Shown: positions 11,529 to 12,183 of the stretch, piece by piece
Numbering within the stretch: the first letter of the stretch is position 1
Layout of the letters: each line of letters opens with the position of its first letter
From: Escherichia coli
Lineage (GTDB): Bacteria > Pseudomonadota > Gammaproteobacteria > Enterobacterales > Enterobacteriaceae
Reading direction: 5' to 3' (one strand)
DNA: 64,000 nucleotides
Assembly: GCF_001677475.2 (NCBI RefSeq)
Contig: NZ_CP015229.1
Translations under genes and position numbers: made by a program
Notes under the pieces: generated by a model
Seen by the model: the letters and a program-made list of their open reading frames with translations, nothing else
Told to the model about the DNA's origin: nothing
Databases searched by the model: none

Positions 11529-11936
11529 TTATCTTTGCGCCTCTTGTTGCAACAATATCCGCCGTAAATCCCGCCATTCGGCTTCGTCCATGCTGTCGGC
11601 TGCCAGCCATAAATGTTGCCGTTTACCGCCATCAGAACGTAAACGCAGCATCATGCCGCTCTTAATCATCCACGGCGCTTTGACGATGCTCCACTCCTGC
11701 CCTTGCCAACGCAAACGCCCGTCCATCAACAGGCGAATTTCCCCCTGGCGAGCATTAATGCGTCGCTGGCTGCGAACGCAATCAAACACCACCAGCGAAA
11801 GTAACACCATCCATAACGGGGTGTAACTGAGCGGCCAGGGCATGAGTAAAATAACAGCGGCAACCAGCCCATGAATCAGCAAGGAAAGCCACTGTGCGCG
11901 CCAGGAGACGCGCAGATCAGATTGCCACAGGACCAC
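11529..11936 (-). CDS. ygfX: inner-membrane toxin-like protein CptA, 135 aa
   Basis: ORF 11529..11936; two hydrophobic helices; overlaps the 3' end of ygfY by 20 nt. Confidence 0.85.
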
Positions 11937-12183
11937 GTTCCCGGTTCCGTGTCTGGATGAGTCGGACCATCATTTCCAGTTCTGCATCCGCCGGTTTACC
12001 GTGATTCATCAGCCAGTTAAACAGGTCCGGATCGTCACACTCCAGCAGACGAATAAAGATGCGTTTTTCGTCATCGCTTAAGCTGTCGTACTCATGTTCG
12101 AAAAACGGCATGATTGAAATATCGAGTTCGCGCATACCACGGCGGCATGCCCAATGAATGCGGGCTTTGTTGTTAATGTCCAT
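11917..12183 (-). CDS. sdhE: FAD assembly factor SdhE (CptB), 88 aa
   Basis: ORF 11917..12183; the short conserved SdhE/YgfY sequence (RGMRELD). Confidence 0.9.

Follow-up and report, generated by a model that had tools for sequence, protein, structure and literature searches.

The bacterial protein SdhE corresponds to human SDHAF2, which is known as a paraganglioma gene. In Escherichia coli, SdhE (also known as YgfY or CptB) binds SdhA and FrdA and promotes the covalent attachment of flavin adenine dinucleotide (FAD), as known from structures and genetics on the E. coli protein (PMC5773532, PMC5293155). Downstream of sdhE lies ygfX (cptA). YgfX is reported to multimerise and to bind SdhE (McNeil et al. 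2013, as cited in PMC5042078 and PMC3985639). For Serratia, co-transcription of sdhE and ygfX and binding of YgfX to SdhE are reported, and a deletion of ygfX did not discernibly affect motility (PMC5042078). We studied the sdhE-ygfX pair in a 64,000-nucleotide (nt) stretch of E. coli DNA, which we call the window. An earlier reading of its sequence (the original prediction) had singled out the pair for a toxin-antitoxin-like (TA-like) organisation and had equated it with CptB/CptA. This is indeed the pair that Masuda et al. 2012 gave those names, going by the papers that cite their study. We think it very likely that sdhE-ygfX is a conserved, vertically inherited housekeeping operon, that the synthesis of YgfX is coupled to that of SdhE and lower, and that the toxin effect of YgfX arises from overexpression.

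The locus is the ordinary sdhE-ygfX operon of E. coli K-12, which was already known, and our comparative additions alter nothing that is known about it. The original prediction had given the positions of both genes, their lengths of 88 and 135 amino acids (aa), and an overlap of 20 nt. All of these are right according to a six-frame list of open reading frames (ORFs; Table 1). It had also identified the pair as K-12 YgfY/YgfX, and alignment to K-12 bears this out. SdhE is 100% identical at the protein level, with 2 synonymous nucleotide differences. YgfX is identical at 134 of 135 residues, with T133A as the only replacement and 8 synonymous differences. Across both genes this makes 11 nucleotide substitutions, one of them non-synonymous. 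There are also a few intergenic substitutions, and we found no structural differences. In the annotation of K-12 MG1655, ygfX (b2896) is at 3040416-3040823 and sdhE (b2897) is at 3040804-3041070, so these genes also overlap by 20 nt. The gene order, the strands, the lengths, and the GTG start of ygfX are shared with the window, as are the neighbours (fldB, xerD, dsbC, and recJ on one side and ygfZ and trhA on the other).

Across E. coli, the operon is distributed like a core gene pair. With a 1051-nt query from the locus, we found matches in 5425 of 5426 complete E. coli genomes. They are 90-99% identical to the query, and the median number of places per genome is 1. Of these places, 5425 are chromosomal, and the annotated features under the matches are fldB, ygfX, sdhE, and ygfZ. 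(The remaining genome lacks any match, and in one of the genomes there is an additional copy, which sits on a record classed as a plasmid.) In a sample from the Enterobacterales, ygfX is directly downstream of sdhE and on the same strand in the window and in all 91 related loci, and the order ygfZ(-) sdhE(+) ygfX(+) fldB(-) xerD(+) is found in 81 of the 91. Both genes are under purifying selection: the ratio of non-synonymous to synonymous polymorphism (pN/pS) is 0.077 for sdhE and 0.193 for ygfX. SdhE is more conserved than YgfX (77% versus 38% identity in Providencia, and 71% versus 28% in another comparison). TA systems are typically patchy, multi-copy, and mobile, and this locus is none of these.

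The overlap of the two genes measures exactly 20 nt. It is out of frame, as ygfX is read in the +1 frame relative to sdhE. We surveyed this junction in 80 loci, one per species and all from the Enterobacteriaceae, which we kept as the best 80 out of 212 confirmed loci. Every one of the 80 has a GTG start at the homologous position together with the 20-nt overlap. For more distant relatives, we used the contigs that encode representatives of distant YgfX clusters, which avoids the bias of a pattern search. The overlap is 20 nt at YgfX identities of 51%, 40%, 38% (Providencia), 37% (Mixta), 32% (Plesiomonas), and 28%; besides these three genera, three metagenomic lineages have it. In Pantoea dispersa the overlap is longer (26 nt), and in one distant lineage, where ygfX starts with ATG, it is shorter (14 nt). 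Counted as distinct distant loci, seven of eight have an overlap. One distant lineage, whose SdhE is 41% identical, has a 30-nt gap instead of an overlap, and a gap of 37 bp has been published for ygfY-ygfX of Shewanella oneidensis. Because the overlap is kept down to about 28% identity of YgfX, yet is replaced by gaps in one lineage and in Shewanella, it is ancestral to the Enterobacterales but not universal. The original prediction had spoken of a strict coupling that is preserved. This holds for the 80 species of Enterobacteriaceae and is ancient within the Enterobacterales, but the two gaps show that it does not extend to every relative.

The nucleotides at the junction are also nearly frozen. 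Only two sites within the overlap vary, one of them in 13 of 79 loci and the other in a single locus. (The more variable site is CCT/CCA, which is synonymous in sdhE and gives L3Q in YgfX.) Third positions flanking the overlap vary in 30-50 of the 79 loci. Just upstream of the GTG, in the 15 nt that form sdhE codons 78-82 (11938-11952, minus strand), a synonymous site varies on average in 3.6 of the 79 loci, as compared to a median of 29 elsewhere, and none of the 73 other 5-codon windows of sdhE is as low. These 15 nt lie outside ygfX and yet their synonymous sites hardly vary, which suggests that the nucleotides as such are under selection. Judging from the sequence, the most plausible explanation is that an initiation region for ygfX is embedded in sdhE (Table 1). 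The duplex that is predicted for this region with the anti-Shine-Dalgarno sequence has a modest energy of -4.3 kcal/mol, and the Shine-Dalgarno-like runs are poorly spaced. We also folded the RNA of the junction. The fold contains a small hairpin in which some of the GTG is paired, but shuffled sequences fold equally well (z = -0.11). The junction is too invariant for a covariation test, and we make no claim about its structure.

What the overlap encodes appears to matter for YgfX as well. YgfX matches the Pfam family Cpta_toxin (PF07254) with E = 6.6e-50 and 169.1 bits (cut-off 27.3), with residues 2-131 aligned to positions 1-132 of a profile of 133. The family is small and evolves fast: a single-sequence search against 1.84 billion cluster representatives found 132 clusters at E <= 0.001. 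An AlphaFold2 model built with 40 diverse homologues has a mean predicted local distance difference test score (pLDDT) of 95.9. It consists of a strand (residues 3-7), two helices (11-30 and 35-61), a beta-rich domain, and a C-terminal helix. The N-terminal strand and the first helix have pLDDT of at least 94, and the model predicts a structural role for the N-terminal residues that the overlap encodes. The two helices agree with the original description of YgfX as a two-helix membrane protein. We infer from the model that it is an inner-membrane protein and that the hairpin of two hydrophobic helices spans the membrane. The beta-rich domain is predicted to be cytoplasmic and is possibly similar to pleckstrin homology (PH) domains. 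When the YgfX alignment was used as a profile to search the PDB, no relative turned up. In the 40 diverse members, W120 is invariant, W76, W81, and W109 are at least 90% conserved, and S10 is nearly invariant even though identity falls to 26%.

SdhE itself is important and well understood. The protein in the window matches Pfam Sdh5 (PF03937; E = 5e-26, 90.8 bits, cut-off 27) and, over residues 1-88 of 88, the NCBIfam equivalog NF008130, "FAD assembly factor SdhE" (E = 1e-59, 198.4 bits, cut-off 120). Its RGxxE motif is intact (R15-G16-M17-R18-E19). In the PDB it matches the small helical-bundle structures 1X6I/1X6J (YgfY; E = 8e-59), 6C12 chain D (3.8e-58), and 6B58 chain B (2.3e-51), and its sequence is identical to the crystallised E. 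coli protein. The chains in 6C12 and 6B58 were both deposited as FAD assembly factor SdhE. We take 6C12 to be the complex of SdhA with SdhE. 6B58 is the FrdA-SdhE complex, and G16 of SdhE touches the histidine FAD ligand in this intermediate (PMC5773532). The SdhE chain in 6B58 covers residues 6-84 only. This hints that the tail of SdhE is dispensable for binding FrdA and that the constraint on the overlap comes mainly from ygfX. A ygfY deletion mutant of E. coli points to the same role. The mutant was grown and profiled, and it had drastically reduced succinate dehydrogenase (SDH) activity, did not grow on succinate, and was metabolically like sdhB and sdhC mutants (PMC5293155). The role in flavinylation that the original prediction had mentioned is thus firmly established, by published structures and a mutant phenotype for an identical protein.

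We can combine these observations into a proposed mechanism for the housekeeping operon. sdhE and ygfX would be carried on one transcript from a conserved promoter-like block; for E. coli, co-transcription is suggested by analogy to Serratia and Shewanella. SdhE, as published for the identical protein, binds SdhA and FrdA and promotes the covalent attachment of FAD, and G16 in its RGxxE motif makes contact with the histidine FAD ligand. ygfX would be translated from a weak GTG start that is located 20 nt before sdhE ends and is preceded by weak Shine-Dalgarno-like sequences. Because this non-ATG start is embedded in sdhE and has a weak Shine-Dalgarno sequence, YgfX synthesis is expected to be coupled to, and lower than, SdhE synthesis. 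The junction would be frozen because it encodes the tail of SdhE, a structurally integral N-terminus of YgfX, and an initiation region at once. That YgfX affects cell shape in a toxin-like way and that SdhE rescues the cells is most likely a result of overexpression or altered stoichiometry, and not a function that is under selection.

Several points weigh against this account. The translational coupling and the low ratio of YgfX to SdhE are read from the sequence only. One of the two patterns with which we searched for the survey loci, WQSDLRVSW, covers part of the overlap, which biases the survey towards conserved N-termini. Also, Masuda et al. 2012 are cited as reporting for the E. coli pair that overproduction of YgfX leads to lemon-shaped cells and inhibits the polymerisation of FtsZ and MreB and that YgfY counteracts this. 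A CptBA-like pair from Acinetobacter baumannii has been reported as a TA system as well. If these reports describe the normal function, then the pair would be a physiological type IV TA system (CptB/CptA): membrane-bound YgfX would block the polymerisation of FtsZ and MreB under some stress, SdhE would moonlight as the antitoxin, and the gene order and overlap would ensure an excess of antitoxin. The claim was made for the E. coli proteins themselves, the Pfam description of PF07254 is "membrane-bound toxin component of toxin-antitoxin system", and the gene order and overlap resemble those of many TA operons. As in a type IV two-gene operon, the genes are adjacent, on the same strand, and overlapping; co-transcription was shown only in Serratia and Shewanella. 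Nevertheless, we consider it unlikely that this is what the operon is for. The locus is core, single-copy, syntenic, and non-mobile, and SdhE is far more conserved than YgfX (as in Providencia, above) owing to its separate role in an essential pathway. Fineran's group (McNeil et al. 2013, as cited in PMC3985639) saw no TA phenotype and did find an interaction between SdhE and YgfX. This interaction contradicts the definition of type IV systems, in which the toxin and the antitoxin do not bind each other. The Shewanella pair failed every type IV criterion that was tested: YgfX was not toxic, YgfY gave no rescue, neither bound FtsZ or MreB, YgfX and YgfY did not interact, there was no morphological effect, and a double deletion of ygfY and ygfX behaved like the deletion of ygfY. 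The E. coli ygfY deletion described above has a metabolic SDH phenotype instead of showing poisoning. This is suggestive rather than decisive: Keio-type deletions retain the final few codons of the removed gene, so that the expression state of ygfX in the mutant is uncertain. In a TA survey of E. coli, CptA_toxin was present in at least 80% of the isolates of every sequence type, usually with an Sdh5 partner, and this is the pattern expected of a core gene. In PADLOC-DB, no family matches SdhE or YgfX at E <= 0.1, but this is weak evidence, as PADLOC is a collection of defence models and not a TA library. The original description of the organisation as TA-like is therefore apt only superficially, in that two small genes, one behind the other, overlap; the sequence lends no support to a TA function. 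The TA label stems from the contested proposal of Masuda et al. 2012.

Two other explanations concern the overlap itself, which is real only if the GTG is used, and so we examined this start. If instead YgfX started at an internal methionine (M32 or M43), then the overlap would be an annotation artefact and there would be no coupling. Public annotations do disagree: in clusters P0156 (Providencia) and P0249 (Pantoea ananatis), products of 136-137 aa from GTG occur alongside products of 97 aa and 104 aa from internal methionines, which some gene callers report as "toxin CptA". It also counts in favour of a later start that the annotated start codon is GTG and that its Shine-Dalgarno-like sequence is poorly spaced. 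However, codons 8-34 of ygfX, which lie outside sdhE and extend to the first internal methionine, have 392, 24, and 769 variations at codon positions 1, 2, and 3 across 79 sequences, and pN/pS for codons 8-31 is 0.14. This periodicity and ratio imply that the region is translated in the ygfX frame. There is no other in-frame ATG, GTG, or TTG between the upstream stop and the GTG, and the GTG is invariant in the 80 loci. A start at M32 would remove the confidently modelled N-terminal strand and first hydrophobic helix, along with the nearly invariant S10. We reject the internal start as highly improbable, given the coding periodicity, the invariant GTG, and the modelled N-terminus. Even less credible, to the point of being negligible, is the idea that the +1 overlap supports programmed frameshifting into an SdhE-YgfX fusion protein. 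Fused ORFs of 166-217 aa with both the Sdh5 and the Cpta_toxin domains do occur in metagenome assemblies (P0002-P0004, P0008-P0010, P0013, and P0017). But these are singletons or doubletons, and the fusions join after residue 28, 33, 60, 72, 84, 86, or 88 of SdhE. Because the joins are scattered, we attribute them to scattered indels or sequencing errors, and we reject frameshifting for the same reason. Furthermore, the stop of sdhE (ATC TGA T) has no slippery motif, and two separate frames are kept in 80 of 80 species genomes. (Elsewhere in the window, at 6297-7178 on the minus strand and adjacent upstream sequence, is the region of prfB, which encodes release factor 2 (RF2). prfB is annotated in K-12 as two joined pieces, presumably the classic programmed +1 frameshift.)

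We also propose, tentatively, a more specific role for the operon. The junction of about 35 nt (the 15 frozen nt plus the 20-nt overlap with the GTG), kept since the ancestor of the Enterobacterales, might be a dedicated translational-coupling device that fixes a low ratio of YgfX to SdhE. YgfX might be a membrane receptor, possibly PH-like, that docks or sequesters SdhE at the inner membrane so that flavinylated SdhA or FrdA can be handed over to the membrane anchor. This is a possibility that we would not bet on. If it were true, then the reported "toxin" phenotype would be what happens when the ratio of YgfX to SdhE is inverted, and a disputed TA pair would become a membrane-targeting step in the assembly of Complex II.

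The features of the locus are listed in Table 1.

Table 1. Features of the sdhE-ygfX locus, with positions in the window.
Feature	Position	Strand	Details
sdhE (ygfY/cptB) coding sequence	11917..12183	-	88 aa; ATG start, TGA stop; from the six-frame ORF list
ygfX (cptA) coding sequence	11529..11936	-	135 aa; GTG start, TAA stop; from the six-frame ORF list
20-nt dual-coding overlap, GTGGTCCTGTGGCAATCTGA	11917..11936	-	SdhE C-terminus (R)GPVAI* and YgfX N-terminus (M)VLWQSD
Probable translation-initiation region of ygfX	11937..11952	-	sdhE codons 78-83 (ACACGGAACCGGGAAC); GGA and GGGAA Shine-Dalgarno-like runs at non-optimal spacing
Shine-Dalgarno-like AGGAAG	12187..12192	-	4-9 nt upstream of the sdhE ATG; CAGGAA core conserved in 12 genera; anti-Shine-Dalgarno duplex -4.3 kcal/mol
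Candidate -10 element TACAAT of a sdhE-ygfX promoter	12219..12224	-	In the block AAAAACACGTTACA(A/C)T; the hexamer ends 35 nt upstream of the ATG; from a 12-genus alignment
Inverted repeat TGACGGC-N16-GCCGTCA	11496..11525	.	Within the 39 nt that separate the stop codons of the convergent genes fldB and ygfX; T-rich run on the + strand only

Upstream of sdhE, the divergent intergenic region between sdhE and ygfZ (12184-12340) contains a conserved block in which, judging from the sequence, a promoter of sdhE-ygfX or a site for a regulator may lie. In the candidate -10 element, the T..A.T columns and their flanks are invariant across the 12 genera. A scan for consensus sigma-70 promoters found no full match, and the -35 is poor. 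About 25 nt further upstream of the block is another motif, ATATTCC, that is conserved in the 12 genera. At the other end of the operon, a terminator scan found none that were credible, and its only "terminators" lie within the ygfX coding sequence. The scan missed the hairpin in the spacer between fldB and ygfX because its loop is longer than 8 nt. This hairpin is present in the centroid fold (z = -1.24, which is not significant). From its sequence, the inverted repeat is probably the terminator of fldB, and it may act as a weak bidirectional stop for sdhE-ygfX too.

An Rfam scan of positions 10800-13000 found no credible RNA family; the sole match was RT-4 with 26.9 bits, as compared to a gathering score of 73.5. 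Elsewhere in the window, two matches reach the gathering level: SIB_RNA at 27776-27926 (+, 138 bits) and 6S/SsrS RNA at 26944-27127 (+, 140 bits). SIB_RNA is a Sib-type type I antitoxin RNA, which puts a genuine RNA-antitoxin locus at a distance of about 16 kb from the pair whose type IV status is disputed. There are also short matches to ES036 (the small RNA CssrF) at 16999-17041 (+, 40.8 bits) and 41147-41189 (+, 47.3 bits), just above the gathering score of 37.6, which are maybe repeated intergenic elements.

The neighbourhood of the operon (9960-13406 in the window, and loci L002-L092) is a cluster with a redox-cofactor theme: ygfZ (Fe-S/folate), sdhE (FAD assembly), ygfX, fldB (flavodoxin), and xerD. 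In a metagenome-assembled genome of Plesiomonas sp. (locus L092, 1305-2975), fldB is replaced after ygfX by a convergent gene for a 556-aa flavoprotein of the SdhA/FrdA/NadB family (PF00890 and PF02910). A gene for an extracytoplasmic function (ECF) sigma factor adjoins this flavoprotein gene.

For annotation, a caution follows. Misled by the Pfam name "Cpta_toxin" and the TA-like layout, automatic pipelines and TA surveys list this core housekeeping operon among the TA systems. What our comparison adds to the known locus is that the overlap and the GTG are invariant in the Enterobacteriaceae and that the overlap persists to about 28% identity of YgfX, that synonymous sites next to it are under selection, and that the N-terminus of YgfX is predicted to be structural.

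Among known systems, the SdhE/Sdh5/SDHAF2 family (PF03937) is the closest to the upstream gene. The full-length equivalog match and the intact RGxxE motif place SdhE from the window squarely within it, and we found no difference for SdhE itself. What differs is the context: beyond the Enterobacterales and their close relatives, members of this family usually lack a downstream ygfX, as indicated by PMC5042078 and by the small size of the YgfX family. The pair in Shewanella oneidensis is homologous to the E. coli pair, is co-transcribed, and likewise has ygfY first. It differs from the E. coli pair in having a 37-bp gap where E. coli has the 20-nt overlap, and toxicity, rescue, and interaction were not detected for it. 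The system that defines type IV TA is CbeA/CbtA (YeeU/YeeV). Its targets, FtsZ and MreB, and its two-gene layout with the antitoxin first have likewise been reported for sdhE-ygfX. But cbtA-type modules lie in prophage-like islands. According to the literature, they have several homologues per genome and several toxin groups, whereas sdhE-ygfX is single-copy, core, and syntenic. And unlike in CbeA/CbtA, the "antitoxin" of sdhE-ygfX has an independent role in the assembly of enzymes and reportedly binds the "toxin" directly.

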